DNA of 64,000 bases from an uncultured Actinomycetota bacterium. Lineage in GTDB: Bacteria > Actinomycetota > Actinomycetes > JACCUZ01. The stretch lies in the NCBI GenBank assembly GCA_963784645.1, contig CAWARY010000020.1, positions 86,899 to 150,898 of the forward strand, written 5' to 3'. The translations under genes were made by a program, and so were the position numbers. This document shows, piece after piece, positions 8,464-49,958 of the stretch (positions within the stretch are counted from its first letter, which is position 1; each line of letters begins with the position of its first letter). The notes below the pieces were generated by a model. That model did no database searches, was not told the DNA's origin, and saw only the letters and a list, made by a program, of their open reading frames with translations.

Positions 8464-9588
8464 TCAGCCGAGGGCGAGCAGGAGCACCTGGCTGTCCTGG
8501 CCGGCAGTGAAGTTGTTGTCGCTGACCAGCAGCACCGACTGCCGGCCGTCCGGCAGCCGCGGGCCACGGGTCATGCCCTCGACGTTGTCCAGCGGCTGCC
8601 TGCCGACGGTCGAGGGGAGCTGGAGCAGCAGCGTCTTGCGGGCCGCCCGCAGGCCGGGCACCGCATCGATGTCCGCTACCCCGGAGACATCCGTGGCGCC
8701 CGGCAGCGCGGCCCGGTAGATGCGGATGGTGTTGCCCGCGCCCACGGAGAAGGAGCGCTCCATGGCGAGCAGGAACTGGCCGTTCAGCGGGAGCAGCTCG
8801 ACCAGGCCGTTGACACTGAACACCGGCGACGGGGCGACGACCGGCTCCGTGCGGTAGACGAACTCGCGGGCGACGCCGTAGTGACCGAGGTGGTAGCGCA
8901 GGATGCGCGCCGGGCTGCCCGTGGACGTGGACGCAGCCGGACCGTCCTGGAGAAGCGCGTTCTCGGCGCCGACGAACAGCTGCTGCCCGTCGGGGGACAC
9001 CGCCGCCGACTCGAAGCCGAGGTTCTGCCGTACGCCCGAGGTGGGTGTCGGGTCGTAGTAGCCGGGCACGGGCAGCCCCCGCAGCTGCCGGCCGGACAGG
9101 TCGAACTCGCGCACGAAGGGCGCGATGCTTCGGGACGAGATGCCCTCCGAGGTGACGACGAGCGTGTCCTGCGGAGTCAGGGTGAGACCTTCGGGGTCGA
9201 GGCTCTGGGCCGGGAACGGCTGGCCGTCGGCACCGAGCAGCGTCGTTGTCGCCAGCACGGTCACGTCGCCGGCGTCCAGCGAGCCGTCGCTGATGTCGAT
9301 CGACAGCGTGTAGAACCGCGCGGGTGAGCTCGTCGGGGTGAAGCCAGCACCCTGGTCGTCGGACAGCGCGTAGTAGACGCCGCGCCGCGTGTCGTAGGAC
9401 AACGAGGACAACCCGCCGACCACGGTGCCGCCGAACGTCGCACCGGCGGCGATCGTGGCGCCGCCGAGGTACTCGAGGTCGGCCGCCGGTCCGCGCGGGC
9501 CGGTGGCGTTGGCGGGGCCGACCAGAAGGCCGGAGGCGAGCCCGGTGACGGCACCGAGGAGAGCGACACGACGGAGCGGGACGAGCAT
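8464..9588 (-). CDS. Secreted esterase-like / phytase-like family protein
   Basis: A signal peptide, MLVPLRRVALLGAVTGLASGLLVGPANA, is followed by a Gly/Thr/Ser-rich beta-propeller-like repeat composition typical of the phytase-esterase-like family. Confidence 0.55.
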   Translation of the reverse strand: MLVPLRRVALLGAVTGLASGLLVGPANATGPRGPAADLEYLGGATIAAGATFGGTVVGGLSSLSYDTRRGVYYALSDDQGAGFTPTSSPARFYTLSIDISDGSLDAGDVTVLATTTLLGADGQPFPAQSLDPEGLTLTPQDTLVVTSEGISSRSIAPFVREFDLSGRQLRGLPVPGYYDPTPTSGVRQNLGFESAAVSPDGQQLFVGAENALLQDGPAASTSTGSPARILRYHLGHYGVAREFVYRTEPVVAPSPVFSVNGLVELLPLNGQFLLAMERSFSVGAGNTIRIYRAALPGATDVSGVADIDAVPGLRAARKTLLLQLPSTVGRQPLDNVEGMTRGPRLPDGRQSVLLVSDNNFTAGQDSQVLLLALG

Positions 9589-17335: not shown

Positions 17336-17396
17336 TCACATGGCGTACTGGTGCTTTGCGTGGCGTGCACGCCATGCAAAGCACCCGTACGCCATG
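17336..17396. repeat. An imperfect palindrome of about 60 bp, predicted to form a long hairpin
   Basis: catggcgtactggtgctttgcgtggcgtgc / gcacgccatgcaaagcacccgtacgccatg are 27-nt arms with 2 mismatches. The palindrome produces mirror-image peptides in track ORFs 17075..17530 (+) and 17310..17576 (-). Confidence 0.6.
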
Positions 17397-17582: not shown

Positions 17583-20387
<2,805 letters not shown>

Positions 20388-20466
20388 GAGGGACTCCTCT
20401 CGTCGTGCACCACTGCGAGCCATCCTGCCCGGGTGGTGCAGGCTCGCCGCACCCGGTGCCCGCACG

Positions 20467-20486
20467 ATATCTCGACGTCAAGATAT
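20467..20486. promoter_or_regulatory. AT-rich 20-bp near-perfect palindrome ATATCTCGACGTCAAGATAT in the divergent acn / thioesterase promoter region
   Basis: Read from the sequence. It has 2 mismatches against its own reverse complement. It is strikingly AT-rich for this genome. It lies 80 nt upstream of the acn start and abuts the ATG of the divergent hotdog gene. Confidence 0.4.
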
Positions 20487-20954
20487 ATGTCCAGCACCGA
20501 TCTCCCGAGCCGGCCAGGAGAGGATCGCGACGTGACGACCGACCCCGACGACGTGCGCGCCAGCCTCGGGCGACAGACATTCATGACTCTCCTGGGTGCC
20601 ACGGCCACGACGGTCGACCCGGGGCACGTCCGGATCGAGCTGCCCTACCGCGAGGACCTCTGCCAGCAGAACGGCTTCCTCCACGCCGGCGTCCTGACGT
20701 CGATCGCGGACTCCGCGTGCGGTTACGCCGCTCTCACCCTCATGCCGACGGGCAGCGACGTGCTCGCGGTCGAGTTCAAGGTCAACCTGCTCGCCCCCGG
20801 ACGCGGGGAGCTGTTCAGGGCCGACGCCCGGGTGGTCCGCAGCGGCCGGACCTTGACCGTGTGCCAGGCCGAGGTGGTGGCTTCCTCGAGCGGCGGGGAC
20901 GACGTCACCGTGGCGCTGATGCAGGCGACGATGATCGCCCGGCCACCGCGCTGA
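20487..20954 (+). CDS. Hotdog-fold thioesterase (PaaI/YbgC-like)
   Basis: The region ...GFLHAGVLTSIADSACGYAALTL...VEFKVNLLAPGRGELFRADARVVRSGRTLTVCQAEV is a typical PaaI-type hotdog core. The start at ATG 20487 is uncertain. Confidence 0.6.
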   Translation: MSSTDLPSRPGEDRDVTTDPDDVRASLGRQTFMTLLGATATTVDPGHVRIELPYREDLCQQNGFLHAGVLTSIADSACGYAALTLMPTGSDVLAVEFKVNLLAPGRGELFRADARVVRSGRTLTVCQAEVVASSSGGDDVTVALMQATMIARPPR

Positions 20955-21068
20955 GCGACGGGGTGCCGGTCGTCCGTGCCCCGTGCCGGTCCGCATGTCC
21001 GACCGGGTGCGGGCACCTGGTCATTTCGGCCCTCCCGCTCCTGCGTTTCCGGGCGTACGCTGCCGCCG

Positions 21069-21364
21069 TGGCCACCGTCTCCAGGCCTCGTTCAGGGCGC
21101 GAGAACCTCCAGTACTTCGCCGAGCTGCAACGACAGGTCGGCGAGCGCGTCGCGCCGTTGCGCACCCGGCAGCGGCTCCGCCGGCGGGCCCGCATCCGTC
21201 GGCTGGTCGGACGCGCCGTGCTCCTGATGGTCCCCGTGCTGGTGGCAGTGCTGCTCGCACTCGACACCGGCGGCGGCCGGACCTGGCTCGGCGACCGCTG
21301 GCAGGACGTGACCCGGTCGGCGACGACACCCGACCAGCAGTCGAGTGCTCCTGCCTCCTCCTAG
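21069..21364 (+). CDS. Possible small membrane protein of about 98 aa; low confidence
   Basis: The tail of track ORF 20249..21364 (VATVSRPRSG...RRLVGRAVLLMVPVLVAVLLALDTGGG...) has one TM-like helix. There is no clear RBS. Confidence 0.2.
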
Positions 21365-21372
21365 GTGTGTGC

Positions 21373-21870
21373 CTAGGCGGGGGCGACGCGGTCGCGATGG
21401 TCCGGCCAGGCGACCGGGGGACGACCCTGCGACTGCTCGACGAACTGGTCGAGGAACCAGCGGCGGTAGGCCACCAGCGGTGCCGGGGTCTCCAGGGTGA
21501 GCAGCAGCCGCCCTTCCCGGCAGTAGTCGTCGACCTCGTCGAAGATCGACCCCAGCTGCGCGGCGGCGACGGCCGCCGAAGCCGGCACCGAGTAGACCAG
21601 GTCGACCGACTCGCGACCCTCCTGGACAGCCCGGGCCAGCTGCCTCTCCTGCTCGGCGGTGAACATCGAGTAGCGGGAGCTGAGGGCGGAGACCAGCTCG
21701 ACGAACCGCTGCGGGAGCCCACCGGGATCGCCCCGCTGGTGGACCTGCTCGGCGACGAGCACCAGCTCGCGAGTGATCTCGTCCGTGTGCTGCTGGGCAG
21801 CCGCTTGGAGCCGGATGGGGATCTGCCCGACGACGACGGTGATGAGCTCCTCGTCGGCCGGCGAGGTCAT
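21373..21870 (-). CDS. Hypothetical protein of 165 aa, translationally coupled to the upstream RsbW-like gene
   Basis: Translation begins MTSPADEELITVVVGQIPIRLQAAAQQHTDEITRELVLVAEQ.... Its ATG overlaps the upstream stop (ATGA). The composition is not Arg-rich junk. Confidence 0.5.
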   Translation of the reverse strand: MTSPADEELITVVVGQIPIRLQAAAQQHTDEITRELVLVAEQVHQRGDPGGLPQRFVELVSALSSRYSMFTAEQERQLARAVQEGRESVDLVYSVPASAAVAAAQLGSIFDEVDDYCREGRLLLTLETPAPLVAYRRWFLDQFVEQSQGRPPVAWPDHRDRVAPA

Positions 21871-22370
21871 GCCGCCGCCCGGGAGCCGGTCCGCACGCTC
21901 GCGGCGCCACCACGGGGCAGCACGCGCTGCCGGCGCGGCTCGCCGGGCCGTCCGCGGTCGGCTGTCCTCAACCCTGCGCCGAGACCCTCGAAGACCTCGC
22001 GGTCCCGGGCGATGCGGCACCAGACCGTCTTGCCGGTGGGGCTCGCCTCGACGCCCCACCGGGTGCTCAGCGCCTCGACGAGCGCGATGCCGCGGCCGGT
22101 CGTGGCGTCGCTGCCGTAGCCGCGGGCCTGCGGCGGCACCGGTGAGGAGTCGGTCACCTCCACGAGGAGCTCGTTCGGCTCCAGGACCAGGTGCACCGTG
22201 TAGGCGCTGCGCGCGTGCAGGGCGGCGTTGGTGGCGAGCTCGGTGAGCACCTGCGCAGCACCCATCTCGTAGTCGCCCGCCTGCCAGTCGTCGAGCGCGG
22301 CCCGGAGGAACCTCCGCGCCGCACCGATGGAGCTGAGCTCGGCAGGAAGGGTCAGGGACGCCTCGGGCAC
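21867..22370 (-). CDS. HATPase_c-type anti-sigma regulatory factor-like protein (RsbW/SpoIIAB-like Ser/Thr kinase fold)
   Basis: VPEASLTLPAELSSIGAARRFLRAAL... is the typical N-terminus of actinobacterial anti-sigma ATPases. ELATNAALHA and the G-rich YGSDATTGRGIALVEAL resemble the Bergerat-fold N and G boxes. The start is a GTG. Confidence 0.55.
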   Translation of the reverse strand: MPEASLTLPAELSSIGAARRFLRAALDDWQAGDYEMGAAQVLTELATNAALHARSAYTVHLVLEPNELLVEVTDSSPVPPQARGYGSDATTGRGIALVEALSTRWGVEASPTGKTVWCRIARDREVFEGLGAGLRTADRGRPGEPRRQRVLPRGGAASVRTGSRAAA

Positions 22371-22375
22371 GGCGC

Positions 22376-23575
22376 TCAGGGTAGGCCACGGCCACTGGTC
22401 GGCGCGAGGACCGCGACGCACTCGACGTGATGGGTCATGGGGAAGAGGTCGAAGGCCCGGATCGCGTCGAGCCGGTAACCGCGCTCGCCGAACCAGCGCA
22501 GGTCCCGGGCCAGGGCGGCCGGGTCGCAGGCGACGTAGGCGATCCGCCGGGCACCGACTCTCGACAGCAGGTCGACCACCGCCTTGCCGGCCCCGGACCG
22601 GGGCGGGTCGAGCACCACGACGTCCGCGCTGCGCAGGTGGACCCGCCGCAGCACGTGGTCGACACGGCCCCGCTCGACCCGCACGGTCGGCAGGTCGGCG
22701 AGGTTGTGCCGGGCGTCCTCGACGGCCACCCGGTCGGACTCGATGCACGTGACCCGCCCGGTCGGGCCGACCCGTTCGGCCAGCGACGCGGCGAACAGGC
22801 CGACGCCGCCGTAGAGGTCGAGCGCGGTCTCGCCCGGCGCCGGGTCGAGCCCGGCGAGGACGGCGCCGAGCAACGTCCGGGCCGCCCCGGGGTGGACCTG
22901 CCAGAAGCCGCCTCCCGTCACCCGGAACGACCGCTCCCCCACGCTCTCCGTCAGCGACCCCGACCCGCGGCCGTCGGGCCGGACCAGGCACTCGCCGGAG
23001 CCCGGTGACACCGCCACCTCGACGCCGTGGGTGCCGGGCCAGCCGCGGCCCGTGACGTCGGCGGCATCGACCAGCGGGTGCGCGATCCGGCAGTGATCGA
23101 CCGGCACGACCGCGTGCGAGCGGTGCCGTCGCAACCCGGCCCGCCCGGCCTCGTCCACCGCCCACTGGACCCGGGTCCGCCAGCCGAGCCCGCCGTCGTC
23201 GCCCGGCACCTCCTCGACGTCGACCTCGACGTCGTCGAGGCCCGCCAGCCGGGACAGCTGCTCGCGCACGACGGCCGTCTTGAGCGCGCGCTGCGCCGGC
23301 AGCGTGGCGTGCTGGAGGTCGCAGCCGCCGCAGCGGCCCGGGCCCGCCCAGGGGCAGGGCGGCTCCACCCTGTCCGGGGAGGCCTCGAGGACGGCGACGG
23401 CGTCGGCCCGCCAGAACGTCGACCCGTAGTGGCCCTCGGTGACCACGGCGCGGACGCGCTCGCCGGGCAGGGCGTGCCGGACGAACACCACTCGTCCGTC
23501 ATGCCGGGCGACGCAGTGCCCGCCGTGGGCGACCGGGCCGACGGTGAGCTCCACCTCGTGGCCGAGGGCCGTCAT
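22376..23575 (-). CDS. 23S rRNA (uracil-C5)-methyltransferase, RumA/TrmA family
   Basis: An N-terminal TRAM-like domain carries the four-Cys cluster CPWAGPGRCGGCDLQH. The C-terminal class-I SAM MTase has LDLYGGVGLF and VLDPPRSG, and the catalytic Cys is in AYVACDPAAL. Confidence 0.75.
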   Translation of the reverse strand: MTALGHEVELTVGPVAHGGHCVARHDGRVVFVRHALPGERVRAVVTEGHYGSTFWRADAVAVLEASPDRVEPPCPWAGPGRCGGCDLQHATLPAQRALKTAVVREQLSRLAGLDDVEVDVEEVPGDDGGLGWRTRVQWAVDEAGRAGLRRHRSHAVVPVDHCRIAHPLVDAADVTGRGWPGTHGVEVAVSPGSGECLVRPDGRGSGSLTESVGERSFRVTGGGFWQVHPGAARTLLGAVLAGLDPAPGETALDLYGGVGLFAASLAERVGPTGRVTCIESDRVAVEDARHNLADLPTVRVERGRVDHVLRRVHLRSADVVVLDPPRSGAGKAVVDLLSRVGARRIAYVACDPAALARDLRWFGERGYRLDAIRAFDLFPMTHHVECVAVLAPTSGRGLP

Positions 23576-23586
23576 GGGCTCGGCAC

Positions 23587-25599
23587 TCAGGACAGACCTC
23601 TGCCGCGTCCCAGGTCTCCGCGGCGCACTGCTCCGGGCGGGGTGCCTTCGACCCGGTCCGCAAGGGCCTCGGAGCTCTTCAGCTGCCACGGCACGCTCGT
23701 CACCATCACGCCGGGGGTGAAGAGCAGCCGCCCCTTCAGCCGGAGCGCGCTCTGGTTGTGCAGCAGGTGCTCCCACCAGTGGCCGACCACGTACTCAGGG
23801 ATCAGCACGGTGACCAGGTCGCGCGGGCTGCCCCGTCGCAGGCTGCGGACGTAGTCGATGACCGGGTCAGTGACCTCGCGGAACGGCGAGTCCAGCACCT
23901 TGAGCGGAACCGGGATCTCGCGCCGGTCCCACTCCCGCTGCAGCGCGCGGGTCTCCTCTGCGTCGACGCTGACCGTGATCGCCTCGAGGGTGGTGGGCCG
24001 CATCGCGCGGGCGTAGGCCACGGCGCGCATCGTCGGCTTGTGGATCTTCGAGACCAGGACGATCGCGTGCGTCCGGGAGGGCAGCACCGTGTCCTCGTCC
24101 TCGTCGACGACGAGCTCCTCCGCCACGCGGGTGTAGTGCTGGTGGATGCCCTTCATCAGCACGAACAGGACGATCATCGCCGCGATCGCGATCCACGCGC
24201 CGAGCAGGAACTTCGTGATGAGCACGACGACCAGCACGACTGCCGTCACCGACAGGCCCACGCCGTTGATCACCCGGCTGCGCTGCATCCGGCCCCGCTC
24301 GGCGGGGTCCCGCTCGCTGCGCAGCAACCGGGTCCAGTGCCGGACCATGCCGGTCTGGCTCAGGGTGAACGACACGAAGACACCGACGATGTAGAGCTGG
24401 ATGAGCCGGGTCACCTCGGCGTTGAACGACACGATCAGGACGATGGCGAAGGCCGCCAGGATGATGATGCCGTTGCTGTACGCCAGCCGGTCGCCCCGCG
24501 TGTGCAGCTGCCTCGGCAGGTAGCGGTCCTGGGCGAGGATCGAGCCCAGCACCGGGAAGCCGTTGAAGGCGGTGTTGGCCGCCAGCACCAGGATCAGGCC
24601 GGTCACGGTGGTGACCACCCCGGCCATCAGCGGCAGGTTGTCGAAGATCCGCTTGGCCAGCTGGCCGATCACGGGGTCCTGGGCGTAGTGCACGTTCTGG
24701 TCGCGGAACAGGACGCCACCGCCGGACGCCACCCCCTCCTCACCGTTGAGCCGCAGCTGCTCGACGACGTTCTCCGCGTAGCGGAGCCCGAGAATCCTGG
24801 CCAGCACGATGACGCTCGTGAGCATCGTGACGGCGATGGTGCCCAGCAACAGCAGCGTCGTCGCCGCGTTCTTGGACTTCGGCTTTCGAAACGCCGGGAC
24901 GCCGTTGCTGATCGCCTCGACACCGGTGAGGGCGGCGCAGCCGGACGAGAACGCGCGCAGCAGCAGGAAGCCGCCGGCCAGACCGGCGATGCCGGTGGAG
25001 TACTGGTCCTCGGCGGTCAGGGTGAACTGTGCGCTGTCGAGGTCCTCCAGGTGACCGAACGCCAGCCGGAAGAACCCCCACGCGGCCATCCCGAGCACCG
25101 ACGCCATGAAGGCGTACGTCGGGATCGCGAACGCCGTACCGGACTCACGGACACCGCGGAGGTTGATCGACATGATGAGGATCACCGCGACGACGGCGAC
25201 CGTCACCTCGTGCCCCTGCAGGGAGTCGATGGTGGAGGCGGCGTACTGCGCGGCCGACGAGATCGACACGGCCACGGTCAGTACGTAGTCGACGAGCAGA
25301 GCGCTGGCGACGGTCAGCCCCGGAGTCGGACCCAGGTTGACCGTCGCGACCTCGTAGTCGCCGCCACCGCTCGGGTACGCGCGCACGTTCTGCCGGTACG
25401 ACGCGACGACCACGAGCATGACCAGCGCGACCGCGATGCCGACCTTCCACGAGAACGAGTAGGCCGCGAACCCGGCGATGCCGAGCGTGAGGAACACCTC
25501 GTCGGGGGCGTAGGCCACCGACGAGAGGGCGTCGCTCGCGAAGACCGGCAGCGCCACCCGCTTGGGCAGCAGCGTCTCGCCGAGCCGGTCGCTGCGCAT
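23587..25599 (-). CDS. APC superfamily amino-acid/polyamine permease with a C-terminal cytoplasmic extension
   Basis: Twelve or more TM segments have an APC signature. The roughly 170-aa C-terminus is hydrophilic. The start was chosen at MRSDRLGETLLPKRV. The track ORF extends to 25713. Confidence 0.7.
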   Translation of the reverse strand: MRSDRLGETLLPKRVALPVFASDALSSVAYAPDEVFLTLGIAGFAAYSFSWKVGIAVALVMLVVVASYRQNVRAYPSGGGDYEVATVNLGPTPGLTVASALLVDYVLTVAVSISSAAQYAASTIDSLQGHEVTVAVVAVILIMSINLRGVRESGTAFAIPTYAFMASVLGMAAWGFFRLAFGHLEDLDSAQFTLTAEDQYSTGIAGLAGGFLLLRAFSSGCAALTGVEAISNGVPAFRKPKSKNAATTLLLLGTIAVTMLTSVIVLARILGLRYAENVVEQLRLNGEEGVASGGGVLFRDQNVHYAQDPVIGQLAKRIFDNLPLMAGVVTTVTGLILVLAANTAFNGFPVLGSILAQDRYLPRQLHTRGDRLAYSNGIIILAAFAIVLIVSFNAEVTRLIQLYIVGVFVSFTLSQTGMVRHWTRLLRSERDPAERGRMQRSRVINGVGLSVTAVVLVVVLITKFLLGAWIAIAAMIVLFVLMKGIHQHYTRVAEELVVDEDEDTVLPSRTHAIVLVSKIHKPTMRAVAYARAMRPTTLEAITVSVDAEETRALQREWDRREIPVPLKVLDSPFREVTDPVIDYVRSLRRGSPRDLVTVLIPEYVVGHWWEHLLHNQSALRLKGRLLFTPGVMVTSVPWQLKSSEALADRVEGTPPGAVRRGDLGRGRGLS

Positions 25600-25884
25600 G
25601 GCACGACCGAGCAGGAGACGCTTGACCGCGTCCGTCGTATGGGGCACGTGGAGGAATGCTAGGGCGTGCCGCCCGGCGTGGGGCCGGGCCCGCCCCGCGG
25701 CGTGCCGAGACACCGGGCAGCACTGGTCACCGGGAGCGGGCCGTGCCGGGCGTGGGGGGCGATGCCGGGCAGCCGGCCCGGCGTCCCGGCCTCTGCGCTA
25801 GCGTCGGGCCGAGCAGTCCGACGATCAACCACCGGGGCCGGCCTGCCGGCCCTCCCAGCCGGGGACAGTGCGAGAGGACCACGC

Positions 25885-26550
25885 GTGCACTTCGTCATCA
25901 TGGGCTGCGGCCGGGTCGGCTCCTCCCTCGCGCTGATCCTCGAGTCGCAGGGCCACTCCGTAGCGGTGATCGACTCGAGCGAGGCGGCCTTCCGCCGTCT
26001 CGGACCCGGCTTCGCCGGGCGCCGCGTGACCGGCATCGGCTTCGACCGCGACACCCTGCGCGAGGCCGGCATCGAGGAGGCTGAGGCCTTCGCGGCGGTG
26101 AGCAGCGGCGACAACTCCAACATCGTGGCCGCGCGGGTCGCCCGGGAGACGTTCGGGGTCGACAACGTGGTCGCCCGCATCTACGACCCGGGCCGCGCCG
26201 AGGTCTACCAGCGGCTCGGCATCCCCACGGTGGCCACGGTCCGCTGGACCGCCGACCAGATGATGCGCCGGCTGCTCCCCCATGGCAGCGAGCCCGAGTG
26301 GCGCGACCCGAGCGGCACCGTCCGGCTGGCCGAGGTGCACCTCGACGACGCGTGGATCGGTGAGCGGATCAGCGCCATCGAGGAGCTGTGTGGCGCCCGC
26401 GTGGCGTTCCTCACCCGTTACGGCGAGGGCCTGCTGCCCGGTGCCGACACCGTCCTCCAGGACGGCGACCTGGTGCACGTGATCATGGTCGACAGCCAGG
26501 CGGACGAGGTGGAGGCCGGGCTTCGGCACCGGTCCGGCGAGGAGCACTGA
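25885..26550 (+). CDS. trkA: Trk-system potassium uptake protein TrkA (ceoB-like), NAD-binding RCK_N plus RCK_C
   Basis: VHFVIMGCGRVGSSLALIL is the Rossmann GxGxxG motif. The start is GTG. The gene is the first of a tandem pair. Confidence 0.8.
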   Translation: MHFVIMGCGRVGSSLALILESQGHSVAVIDSSEAAFRRLGPGFAGRRVTGIGFDRDTLREAGIEEAEAFAAVSSGDNSNIVAARVARETFGVDNVVARIYDPGRAEVYQRLGIPTVATVRWTADQMMRRLLPHGSEPEWRDPSGTVRLAEVHLDDAWIGERISAIEELCGARVAFLTRYGEGLLPGADTVLQDGDLVHVIMVDSQADEVEAGLRHRSGEEH

Positions 26551-27215: not shown

Positions 27216-27313
27216 TCCGGCCCGCTACCCCGCCCGCGTCCCCTCGCCCGTTGATCACGTGCACGTGATCGACGACCGCCGACCGTGGTGAATAGGCCGC
27301 GGACGGCGGTCGT

Positions 27314-47582: not shown

Positions 47583-48506
47583 GTGGCGAACGGTCCGCTG
47601 GGCACCGAGACCCTCGACGTCGTCGTGGTCGGCGACGTGATGGTCGACGTGCTGGCCTCGATGTCCGGCCCGCTCGCCTCCGGCAGCGACACGCCCTCGG
47701 TCGTCACCACGGCCGGCGGCGGCTCGGCGGCGAACGTCGCGTGCTGGCTGGCGCGGCAGGGTGTGCCCACGTCGTACGTCGGACGGGTGGGCGACGACCC
47801 GCTCGGCCGCGAGTCGGTGGCGGGGCTCACCGGCTGCGGCGTCACGCCGTACGTCAGCACCGACCCGGAGCGCACCACCGGCACCTGCGTCGTGCTGGTC
47901 GAGCCCGGCGGCGAGCGGTCGATGCTGCCTGACTCCGGCGCCAACACGACCCTGACCCCGGAGGACCTGCCGCGGCGGGCGTTCCGGCCCGGCGCGCACC
48001 TGCACCTGTCCGGCTACACGCTGCTCAACGAGGGCTGCCGGGAGGCCGGGCTCGCGGCGCTCGCGATGGCCCGCGAGACCGGCATGACGGTCTCGGTCGA
48101 CCCGTCGTCGGCCGCCCCGCTGCAGACGGTCGGTGCGGCGCGGTTCCTCGCCTGGACCCGCGGTGTCGACCTGCTGCTCGCCAACCGCGACGAGGCAGCG
48201 GCCCTCGCGGGCACCGCTGACCCGCACGAGGCGGCGCAGCTGCTCGGCGACACCTACGGCGAGGTCGTCGTCAAGCTCGGGGCAGGCGGCGCTCTCTGGC
48301 ACCGCGGCTTCATCGGCGCCAGCGCGCCGGCCGAGCGCACGGTCGAGGTCGTCGACACCACGGGAGCCGGCGACGCGTTCGCCGCCGGCTTCCTCGCGTC
48401 GTGGCTGCTGCACCCCGAGCCGGAGACGGCGCTGGCCGCCGGCAACCGGCTCGCGGGCCGCGCCGTGACCGTCGTCGGCGCCCGCCCACGGCCGGCGGCC
48501 GGATGA
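47583..48506 (+). CDS. PfkB-family carbohydrate kinase; probable pseudouridine kinase
   Basis: A ribokinase-like fold is indicated by an N-terminal GDVMVD, ...TAGGGSAANVA... and the C-terminal TTGAGDAFAAGFL anion-hole motif. The gene is 4 nt after psuG. Confidence 0.75.
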   Translation: MANGPLGTETLDVVVVGDVMVDVLASMSGPLASGSDTPSVVTTAGGGSAANVACWLARQGVPTSYVGRVGDDPLGRESVAGLTGCGVTPYVSTDPERTTGTCVVLVEPGGERSMLPDSGANTTLTPEDLPRRAFRPGAHLHLSGYTLLNEGCREAGLAALAMARETGMTVSVDPSSAAPLQTVGAARFLAWTRGVDLLLANRDEAAALAGTADPHEAAQLLGDTYGEVVVKLGAGGALWHRGFIGASAPAERTVEVVDTTGAGDAFAAGFLASWLLHPEPETALAAGNRLAGRAVTVVGARPRPAAG

Positions 48507-48970
48507 GCGAGGAGGGCGCCCTTGCTGCCGTCGAAGCGGCCGGCCTCGCGCACCGGGTGGTACGGCACGGGCCGGTGCGCAGCCTGGCCGAGGCAGCGGC
48601 GGCCCGCGGCGTGGAACCCGCCGCGGTCGTCAAGACCCTCGTCGTGCGCCGCGGCGAGGGCGACTACCTGTTCGTCCTGGTCCCCGGCGACCGGACCATC
48701 TCCTGGCCGAAATTGCGCGACCTGCTCGGCGTCAGCCGGATGTCGATGCCCGACGCTGCCACGGCTCGGGACGTCACCGGCTACGAGCGCGGCACGATCA
48801 CGCCGTTCGGCGCCACCACCGCGTGGCCGGTGGTGGCGGACGAGCGGCTGCTCGGGCACGAGGTCACGCTCGGCGCGGGCGCCCACGGCGTCGCCGTCGC
48901 GGTCGACGCCGACGCCACGGTGACAGCCCTGGGAGCCGTCGTCGCCGACGTCACGGACCCCGAGGGATGA
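48503..48970 (+). CDS. YbaK/ProX-type aminoacyl-tRNA deacylase domain protein
   Basis: ATGA overlap with the kinase stop. The motif ...VKTLVVRRGEGDYLFVLVPGDRTISWPKLRDLLGVSRMSMPDA...ITPFG is the YbaK deacylase signature. Confidence 0.65.
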   Translation: MSEEGALAAVEAAGLAHRVVRHGPVRSLAEAAAARGVEPAAVVKTLVVRRGEGDYLFVLVPGDRTISWPKLRDLLGVSRMSMPDAATARDVTGYERGTITPFGATTAWPVVADERLLGHEVTLGAGAHGVAVAVDADATVTALGAVVADVTDPEG

Positions 48971-49019
48971 GGCGACCGCCCGGACGGTGCCAGGCAGCCC
49001 CGTCGATAGCGTCGACCAC

Positions 49020-49958
49020 ATGACGACGACCGGAACCGGTCCGACGACCACGGGCTCCCCCGCCGCCCAGCGCACGGCAGCCCTGGCGCTGACCGCCGCC
49101 GGCGTGACCGTCGTGCTGTGGGCCTCGGCGTTCGTCGCCATCCGGCACGTAGGGCGGGAGATCTCGCCCGGTGCGCTGACCCTGGGCCGGCTGCTGGTCG
49201 GCAGCATCGTGCTCGGAACCGTCGTCCTGGTCCGCGGCCCGAGCTGGCCGGCCCGCCGCGACTGGCGACTCCTGCTCGTCTGCGGGCTCCTGTGGTTCGG
49301 CGTCTACAACATCGCGCTGAACGCCGCCGAGCAGCGGGTCGACGCCGGGACCACCGCGATGCTCGTCAACGTCGGGCCGCTGATCCTTGCGATCCTCGCC
49401 GGCGTGCTCCTCGGTGAGGGGTTCCCCCGCCGACTGGTCGTCGGCAGCCTGATCGCCTTCGCCGGCGTGGTCGTCATCGGTGCGGCCACCTCGGGCCGCA
49501 GCGCCGGCACGGCGGGTGTCCTGCTGTGCCTCGTCGCCGCGGTCGGCTACGCCGTGGGCGTCGTCGCGCAGAAGCCACTGCTCGGCCGCCTACCGGCCCT
49601 GGAGGTCACCTGGCTCGCGTGCAGCGTCGGCGCCGTCGCCTGCCTGCCGTTCGCCCCGCAGCTGCTGTCCGAGGCGTCCGACGCACGCGTCTCGACCCTC
49701 GGCTGGATCGTCTACCTCGGCGCGTTCCCGACGGCCATCGCCTTCACCACGTGGGCCTTCGCCCTCTCCCACACGACGGCCGGCCGGATGGGCGCCACCA
49801 CCTACCTGGTGCCGCCGGTCACGATCCTGCTGGCGTGGTTCCTCCTCGACGAGACGCCGGTGCTGCTCGCGTTCGCCGGTGGGGCCCTCTGCCTGCTGGG
49901 CGTCGCGGTTGCCCGCGGTACCCGCGCCCGCCGCGACCGCACCGGGGCGCCGGCGTGA
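49020..49958 (+). CDS. EamA/DMT family transporter
   Basis: Ten TM helices form two EamA repeats. The start was chosen at MTTTGTG. The track ORF begins at 48987. Confidence 0.7.
   Translation: MTTTGTGPTTTGSPAAQRTAALALTAAGVTVVLWASAFVAIRHVGREISPGALTLGRLLVGSIVLGTVVLVRGPSWPARRDWRLLLVCGLLWFGVYNIALNAAEQRVDAGTTAMLVNVGPLILAILAGVLLGEGFPRRLVVGSLIAFAGVVVIGAATSGRSAGTAGVLLCLVAAVGYAVGVVAQKPLLGRLPALEVTWLACSVGAVACLPFAPQLLSEASDARVSTLGWIVYLGAFPTAIAFTTWAFALSHTTAGRMGATTYLVPPVTILLAWFLLDETPVLLAFAGGALCLLGVAVARGTRARRDRTGAPA

Follow-up and report, generated by a model that had tools for sequence, protein, structure and literature searches.

A probable TamR-type repressor site overlapping the aconitase promoter of an uncultured actinobacterium

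The control region between the divergent aconitase (acn) and thioesterase genes of an uncultured actinobacterium contains an AT-rich inverted repeat that is probably the binding site of a TamR-type repressor, overlapping the predicted acn promoter. The assignment draws on the sequence of the repeat, on its conservation upstream of acn in other Actinomycetota, and on the genes beside which exact copies are found in metagenomes. The repeat lies in a window of 64 kb, the whole stretch of DNA that was analyzed. Its surroundings comprise the following features:

17583 to 20387, minus strand: acn, encoding aconitate hydratase AcnA of 934 amino acids (Pfam PF00330 and PF00694; NCBIfam NF006757 AcnA, 1443.8 bits)
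20388 to 20460, minus strand: acn leader, if transcription starts near 20457, with a GAGGAG ribosome-binding site and a GC-rich hairpin
20464 to 20493, minus strand: candidate sigma-70-type acn promoter, TGGACA-18-TATCGT, with a predicted start site
20467 to 20486, no strand assigned: 20-bp dyad; its two end positions, 20467 and 20486, are unconserved
20468 to 20485, no strand assigned: putative 18-bp operator core of the UrtR/TamR type, T-xx-CT-x8-AG-xx-A, reading TATCTCGAC and then GTCAAGATA
20532 to 20954, plus strand: hotdog (PaaI-like) thioesterase gene (Pfam PF03061; TIGR00369)

An earlier, sequence-only reading had placed the dyad between divergent aconitase and thioesterase genes, and this placement holds, with acn on the minus strand and the thioesterase gene on the plus strand. 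The acn gene starts with GTG, preceded by the ribosome-binding site GAGGAG at 20394-20399, and the dyad most likely lies 80 nt upstream of this start. That reading had also let the dyad abut the thioesterase ATG. An ATG does follow directly at 20487 and is an alternative start, though translation probably does not begin there. We favor GTG 20532 because a ribosome-binding site, GGAGAGG, lies 8 nt upstream of it (20517-20523) and because residue 10 of a solved 141-aa homolog (PDB 3e1e) aligns with residue 22 of the ATG-started protein; the homologs of the thioesterase are 141 to 142 aa long. The dyad is therefore most likely 45 nt upstream of the thioesterase start. A thioesterase homolog occurs near acn at only 1 of 80 other loci, and the gene is thus not a conserved neighbor. 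Downstream of acn are an ORF without a family match and a gene for a sugar ABC-transporter binding protein. The thioesterase gene is followed by a 378-aa ORF on the plus strand (20983-22119), which has no Pfam or NCBIfam match and is overlapped by minus-strand ORFs extending up to 22395. Upstream of acn, the interval 22376-26550 encodes a TrmA-like RNA methyltransferase, an APC-family permease, and a TrkA-like protein; the order permease-methyltransferase-acn is common to loci of Cellulomonas, Kineococcus, Arthrobacter, and Kocuria and suggests that the DNA derives from an organism resembling Micrococcales or Kineosporiales.

The dyad at 20467-20486, ATATCTCGACGTCAAGATAT, is symmetric at 9 of 10 pairs, the only broken pair being C20473 versus A20480, and its outer hexamers, ATATCT and AGATAT, pair perfectly; the earlier reading had likewise described a nearly perfect dyad with a perfect outer pair. 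With up to two mismatches allowed, ATATCT-N8-AGATAT matched once in the 64-kb window, compared with 0.02 matches expected. Symmetry of this degree is common, however: twelve 20-bp dyads in the window pair at 9 or more of their 10 positions, versus 10.2 ± 3.4 in first-order Markov simulations, and palindromy by itself was dropped as evidence because such dyads occur at the chance rate. The exceptional feature of the dyad is its composition, and its symmetry alone is weak evidence. It is the sole AT-rich member of the twelve, no dyad of 40% GC or less arose in 100 first-order Markov simulations, and the only 20-mers in the 64 kb that do not exceed 35% GC start at 20467-20469, in a window with a GC content of 72.8%. 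The description of the site as an AT island in GC-dense surroundings is thus borne out. Of the other 20-bp dyads that are symmetric at 9 of 10 pairs, the one at 27252-27271, TGATCACGTGCACGTGATCG (55% GC), apparently occupies or borders a narrow interval separating candidate ORFs. A second, GCGTGGCGTGCACGCCATGC (17358-17377), is found downstream of acn, and a third, GAGACCGGCATGACGGTCTC, spans 48075-48094; each may be an operator or a terminator.

The dyad had been proposed to be an operator controlling acn, a proposal against which a lack of conservation in orthologous acn promoters was to count. We used the N-terminal 350 residues of AcnA as the query and retrieved 80 loci from named Actinomycetota genomes with 75 to 83% identity; the counts below refer to 81 acn loci and, for the best match to the dyad, to the 350 nt upstream of acn. 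The core, TATCTYGAYRTCRAGATA, was present upstream of acn with no more than two mismatches at 58 of the 81 loci, spread over many orders of the phylum, and the best match to the window dyad had no more than six mismatches at about 58 loci. The loci that carry it include those of Streptomyces, Kitasatospora, Streptacidiphilus, Cellulomonas, Kineococcus, Kribbella, Microbispora, Actinomadura, Nocardiopsis, Gulosibacter, and several metagenome-assembled genomes. The site in Streptomyces is invariant (TTATCTCGACATCGAGATAT, about 130 nt upstream of acn) and differs from the window site at 3 of 20 positions. When all 1.03 Mb of these sequences were searched for TATCTYGAYRTCRAGATA with up to three mismatches, 67 of the 68 matches lay just upstream of acn, and the lone off-target match, which had three mismatches, lay inside a coding region. 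Eight diverged acn upstream regions were also aligned; the mean column identity was 48%, and 13 of the 14 invariant columns fell inside the dyad. Conservation at 58 of 81 acn promoters therefore argues that the dyad is a functional element, in line with its proposed role as an operator of acn. A scoring matrix was built from the 29 distinct acn-upstream sites, among which the outermost positions of the 20-mer, 1 and 20, are free to vary. With this matrix, the core at 20468-20485 scored 37.0 of a possible 40.7 bits, and the runner-up in the window scored 8.0.

The remaining 23 of the 81 loci lack the dyad, among them those of Micromonospora, Actinoplanes, Dactylosporangium, Arthrobacter, Kocuria, Lentzea, Amycolatopsis, and Modestobacter, which means that not every lineage has the circuit. 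Genes encoding SDR, TauE, AraC, and similar proteins, and not an AcnR-like TetR protein, neighbor acn at the dyad-less loci, and clustering of the ORFs around acn at all 81 loci revealed no conserved regulator gene beside it. Two tandem dyads upstream of acn were seen in Kitasatospora and in Streptosporangiales-type genomes (L003, at 5841 and 5869; L027, at 5842 and 5877; L036, L066, L078, L043, L010, L007, and L004). Their centers are 27 to 28 or 34 to 35 bp apart (27 to 35 bp overall), which suggests that two dimers bind there, possibly cooperatively.

The conserved positions point to a family of regulators. The operators of the urate-responsive (UrtR) subfamily of MarR regulators, to which PecS, MftR, HucR, and TamR belong, have the consensus T6xxC9T10x8A19G20xxA23, whose positions are contacted by the protein in crystal structures: C9 and T10 by the S-G of a T/S-S-G-T element and T6 by an arginine of the wing (PMC11602129). 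The core at 20468-20485, T-AT-CT-CGACGTCA-AG-AT-A, fits this consensus exactly, and the six consensus positions (T, C-T, A-G, and A) are invariant in the 29 distinct acn sites. PecS of V. vulnificus binds TATCTTTATATTAAGATA, which consists of 9-bp half-sites, and the first 6 bp of each 9-bp half are the most conserved and are AT-rich (PMC6391409). The acn-type core conforms to this pattern of 18 bp in two 9-bp half-sites, which in the window occupy 20468-20476 and 20477-20485 and read TATCTC GAC and, on the reverse strand, TATCTT GAC. The operators of PecS, MftR, and HucR (structures 8ylf to 8ylm and 2fbk) share with the window site the T-xx-CT-x8-AG-xx-A arrangement, the 9-bp half-sites, and the outer TATCTT. 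Urate or xanthine is the ligand of these three regulators, whose targets are genes for efflux (pecM), virulence, or uricase. The acn-type sites keep an invariant GAY/RTC center, whereas the Vibrio PecS site lacks it.

Within this subfamily, TamR is the Streptomyces paralog of PecS and responds to citrate and related compounds, not to urate (PMC6391409). In S. coelicolor, TamR represses several genes of the citric acid cycle, including that for aconitase, and damage to the Fe-S cluster of aconitase causes citrate and trans-aconitate to accumulate, which relieves the repression (PMC5487221). The S. coelicolor operator, found in the tam-tamR intergenic region and in the promoter of sacA (SCO5999), is likewise an 18-bp AT-rich palindrome at an aconitase promoter, and the window dyad, too, lies before acn and overlaps the sole promoter-like match there. 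The TamR operator was reportedly worked out by Huang and Grove in 2013 and by Huang, Sivapragasam, and Grove in 2015, and the latter authors are said to include tam, tamR, idh, mdh, and aceB1 in the regulon as well. The window organism is not a Streptomyces species, and its synteny resembles that of Cellulomonas, Kineococcus, and Arthrobacter-type loci. It also differs from the Streptomyces system in that the site occupies a predicted promoter spacer, not a position just past the −10 element, and in that the window holds no tam or tamR gene. A tblastn search of the 64 kb with 24 MarR and 7 Tam queries was negative for both kinds of gene, so the regulator is presumably encoded elsewhere; only a distant EamA gene turned up, at 48924-49958. 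A full-text search of the literature with the site as a literal string returned only irrelevant primer matches. The sequence-only reading had suggested that the site may belong to a different, possibly local regulator, and here our reading departs from it. The site fits the UrtR/PecS/TamR consensus (PMC11602129), the 64 kb contain no MarR or tam gene, and the same dyad precedes TamR-like MarR genes elsewhere.

The evidence from elsewhere comes from an exact-pattern scan of metagenome contigs, which returned at least 120 loci; a gene was counted as a neighbor when its 5' end faced the site within 450 nt. Among the matches listed, a MarR-family gene faced the site at 41 of 120, placing the motif before its cognate regulator gene in other organisms, as autoregulation would have it, and 10 of these genes were paired with an EamA/PecM-like gene in the PecS-PecM arrangement. 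The acn gene faced the site at 38 of the 120 matches listed. Methyltransferase genes faced 6 of the matches listed, 4 of them with a detected MarR gene on the other, divergent side. Isocitrate dehydrogenase genes of the monomeric or dimeric type likewise faced 6 of the matches listed, PrpD genes 2, and an SdhC gene 1, and VOC or YceI genes were faced by a further small number; for 25, mostly at contig ends, the facing gene was not identified. The neighbors were called with Pfam as MarR (PF01047 or PF12802), as dehydrogenases (PF03971 or PF00180), and as the transporter EamA. Thus, about 95 of the 120 copies among the matches listed lie in the 5' regions of a few families, which include the cognate regulator gene.

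The isocitrate dehydrogenase sites are on L139, L144, L081, and L174 (divergent GNAT acetyltransferase gene) and on L148 and L156. PrpD, which is 2-methylcitrate dehydratase, is faced on L153 and L175, and SdhC, the cytochrome b of succinate dehydrogenase, on L200. Since exact dyads precede isocitrate dehydrogenase, PrpD, and SdhC genes, the regulon is likely broader than acn. On six contigs of 46 to 51% GC (L092, L124, L146, L173, L183, and L197), the dyad lies directly upstream of an acn gene with 70 to 77% identity. This co-occurrence indicates that the circuit also exists in low-GC Actinomycetota, which are probably freshwater lineages.

At four loci (L131, L136, L158, and L176), the dyad lies between a MarR gene and a divergent gene for a trans-aconitate 2-methyltransferase, as in the tam-tamR arrangement of the TamR system, so that the divergent pair shares the site. 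The methyltransferases were identified with NF010703, for which L131 scored 332.6 bits against a cut-off of 320 and L176 scored 313.3. The best PDB matches of the Tam-adjacent MarR protein are the UrtR structures 8ylf, 8ylh, 8ylm, and 2fbk (HucR), with an E value of 2e-35. All dyad-adjacent MarR proteins that were examined carry the T/S-S-G-T recognition element, which is also present in PecS, MftR, and HucR, and the Tam-adjacent protein has it in the form TSGT.

These contexts also raise the alternative that, in the source organism, a site of this operator family is bound by another UrtR paralog, PecS-like and responsive to urate or xanthine, or with some other ligand. An identical core lies between PecS-like MarR and EamA/PecM-like genes at 10 loci among the matches listed, and the core is also found beside MarR genes with other partners. 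The paralogs are indistinguishable from the DNA alone: EamA-adjacent sites share the core, and the motif by itself does not tell TamR from PecS-like proteins. The 64-kb window, moreover, holds no regulator gene. The proteins themselves fall into two groups. The Tam-adjacent clade (L131, L136, L158, and L176) has mutual identities of 62 to 86%, the EamA-adjacent clade (L117, L120, L166, and L194) has mutual identities of 56 to 65%, and identity between the two is about 41 to 49%. The MarR protein of L196 is 54 to 60% identical to the Tam-adjacent clade and 39 to 43% identical to the EamA-adjacent clade. Its gene is divergent from that of a nonorthologous, mitochondrial-type aconitase (TIGR01340, 980 bits; L196:8085-11007) that is only 32% identical to AcnA, and an exact dyad lies between the two genes, at 8597-8614. 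Hence, among the matches listed, the sole MarR gene directly divergent from an aconitase gene belongs to the Tam-adjacent clade. At the high-GC sites, the conserved targets encode enzymes that handle citrate and aconitate (acn, idh, prpD, and tam), and control of aconitase has been assigned to TamR (PMC5487221). We therefore consider binding by a different paralog unlikely; the L196 linkage and the set of targets favor a TamR-like, tricarboxylate-sensing regulator.

We next consider the position of the dyad relative to the acn promoter. Between 20200 and 20700, the sole promoter-like match is TGGACA-18-TATCGT (0.1 expected from shuffled sequences), with the −35 element at 20493-20488, the spacer at 20487-20470, and the −10 element at 20469-20464. 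The spacer of this candidate promoter is taken up by the dyad, which also overlaps the −10 element by 3 nt. Here and in the other lineages, promoter assignments are predictions from sequence. In L006, the closest relative, TGGTTA takes the place of the −35 element and the −10 element is poor. Many lineages, including Streptomyces, have a TANNNT hexamer directly 5' of the dyad, as in cATGACC-17-TAGAGT followed by the dyad, an arrangement in which the dyad would cover the predicted transcription start. The spacer, as in the window, and the position after the −10 element, as in Streptomyces, are both positions for repressors.

The sequence-only reading had suggested that the dyad overlaps a −35-like TTGACG on the acn strand. 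We ruled out this element, as no TANNNT hexamer lies 16 to 18 nt downstream of it, and TGGACA-18-TATCGT is the better candidate. The same TTGACG could be taken to mean that the repeat is an AT-rich promoter element (a −35 element or UP-like tract) that is symmetric by accident, or else the site of an unrelated, uncharacterized regulator, and the chance-level frequency of 20-bp dyads with 9 of 10 pairs in the window agrees with such an accident. Both half-sites are kept across orders, though, with 13 invariant columns within the dyad, and the metagenomic copies are concentrated 5' of a few gene families, the cognate regulator gene among them. Together with the missing −10 hexamer, this makes either version very unlikely.

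The variation that the half-sites do tolerate bears on whether the dyad acts as DNA or as RNA. If transcription starts near 20457, the acn leader contains a hairpin just upstream of the ribosome-binding site, built on TGCACCAC/GTGGTGCA (inverted repeat I3), with a folding energy of −39 kcal/mol (z = −2.1 versus shuffled sequences); no Rfam family matched the acn leader and dyad region. In the 29 distinct sites, positions 7 and 14 of the dyad read T-G in 12, T-A in 11, C-A in 3, and C-G in 3, without compensation, and positions 10 and 11 read TA in 4, CA in 7, CG in 11, and TG in 7, without covariation. A pyrimidine is thus tolerated independently in each half-site, which argues for a dimeric protein that reads TATCTYGAY twice and not for a hairpin. 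We accordingly ruled out that the palindrome is an RNA stability or attenuation element in the acn or thioesterase leader, a reading that is scarcely credible: symmetric positions do not covary, Rfam has no match, and the dyad occurs in both orientations before many unrelated genes and also between divergent genes. In favor of that reading, a transcript of the region could fold into a stem of 7 to 8 bp closed by a short loop, and a −10-like hexamer 5' of the dyad in some lineages would make the dyad partly transcribed.

The dyad resembles the AcnR operator of Corynebacterium glutamicum in function, as a dedicated repressor site in an acn promoter. AcnR binds the motif CAGNACnnncGTACTG; it belongs to the TetR family and its gene lies directly downstream of acn, whereas the window dyad fits a different family. 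Neither an AcnR-type motif nor a TetR gene directly downstream of acn is present at the window locus. The IdeR/DtxR iron box, TTAGGTTAGGCTAACCTAA, had no match with three or fewer mismatches anywhere in the window, and an IdeR reading of the region was dropped on this ground. The earlier statement that the dyad does not match the AcnR, IdeR, or Crp/GlxR consensus thus holds. Many other actinobacterial acn leaders (L018 to L072) contain an iron-box-like GTWAGGnnnACCTAA about 30 to 60 nt downstream of the dyad. Examples lie about 83 nt upstream of acn in L026 (GTCGGTAAGGGTTACCTAA), at −106 in L043, and at −63 in L013. The IdeR/DmdR consensus was matched with six or fewer mismatches in 42 of 79 acn upstream regions, compared with 0 of 79 shuffled controls, and positions 20388-20466 of the window contain no such palindrome. 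The pattern suggests that acn is subject to both TamR and iron in the iron-box lineages, and not at the window locus.

A mechanism can be proposed on these grounds, in which we infer the identity of the regulator in the source organism, its ligands, and the promoter positions. The repressor would be a TamR-like, homodimeric winged-helix MarR protein of the UrtR subfamily, a paralog of PecS, MftR, and HucR, encoded outside the 64-kb window. One monomer would bind each 9-bp half-site, TATCTYGAY, with the T/S-S-G-T of the recognition helix contacting the CT bases in the major groove and an arginine of the wing contacting the outer T in the minor groove. The bound dimer would lie over the acn core promoter, in the spacer of TGGACA-18-TATCGT, and would keep RNA polymerase off; in the Streptomyces version, the dimer would sit directly downstream of the −10 element and would likewise exclude the polymerase. 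A drop in aconitase activity, for instance through oxidative damage to the [4Fe-4S] cluster, would let citrate and cis- and trans-aconitate build up. These ligands would bind the repressor and lower its affinity for DNA, an effect reported for S. coelicolor TamR only, and acn would be derepressed. The net circuit would be a substrate-driven feedback loop.

The kind of element described here is already known, as a UrtR/TamR-type MarR site at an aconitase gene has been characterized in S. coelicolor. It is not a new kind of element but a new instance in an actinobacterium other than Streptomyces, and its broad distribution among Actinomycetota adds modestly to what is known of the circuit. From sequence alone, the TamR-aconitase circuit of S. 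coelicolor appears to extend over many orders of Actinomycetota. The evidence is about evenly balanced on a wider reading, in which the dyad is the signature of an ancient feedback regulon for citrate and aconitate, run by TamR-like MarR proteins throughout the phylum and far beyond Streptomyces. Besides acn, such a regulon would take in tam, prpD, sdhC, and the isocitrate dehydrogenase genes of both types, and would reach Micrococcales-like genomes (that of the window included), low-GC (46 to 51%) freshwater-type Actinomycetota, and the mitochondrial-type aconitase; the divergent thioesterase gene may be coregulated, or a paralog with another ligand may act at the site. As a marker, the 18-bp motif is highly specific, with one 37-bit match in 64 kb and matches essentially confined to acn upstream regions in 1 Mb, and could therefore be used to map the regulon in genomes and metagenomes. 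For a nonmodel actinobacterium, the site suggests a concrete regulator and signal for the control of aconitase: a TamR-like MarR protein that would respond to citrate and aconitate after Fe-S damage.
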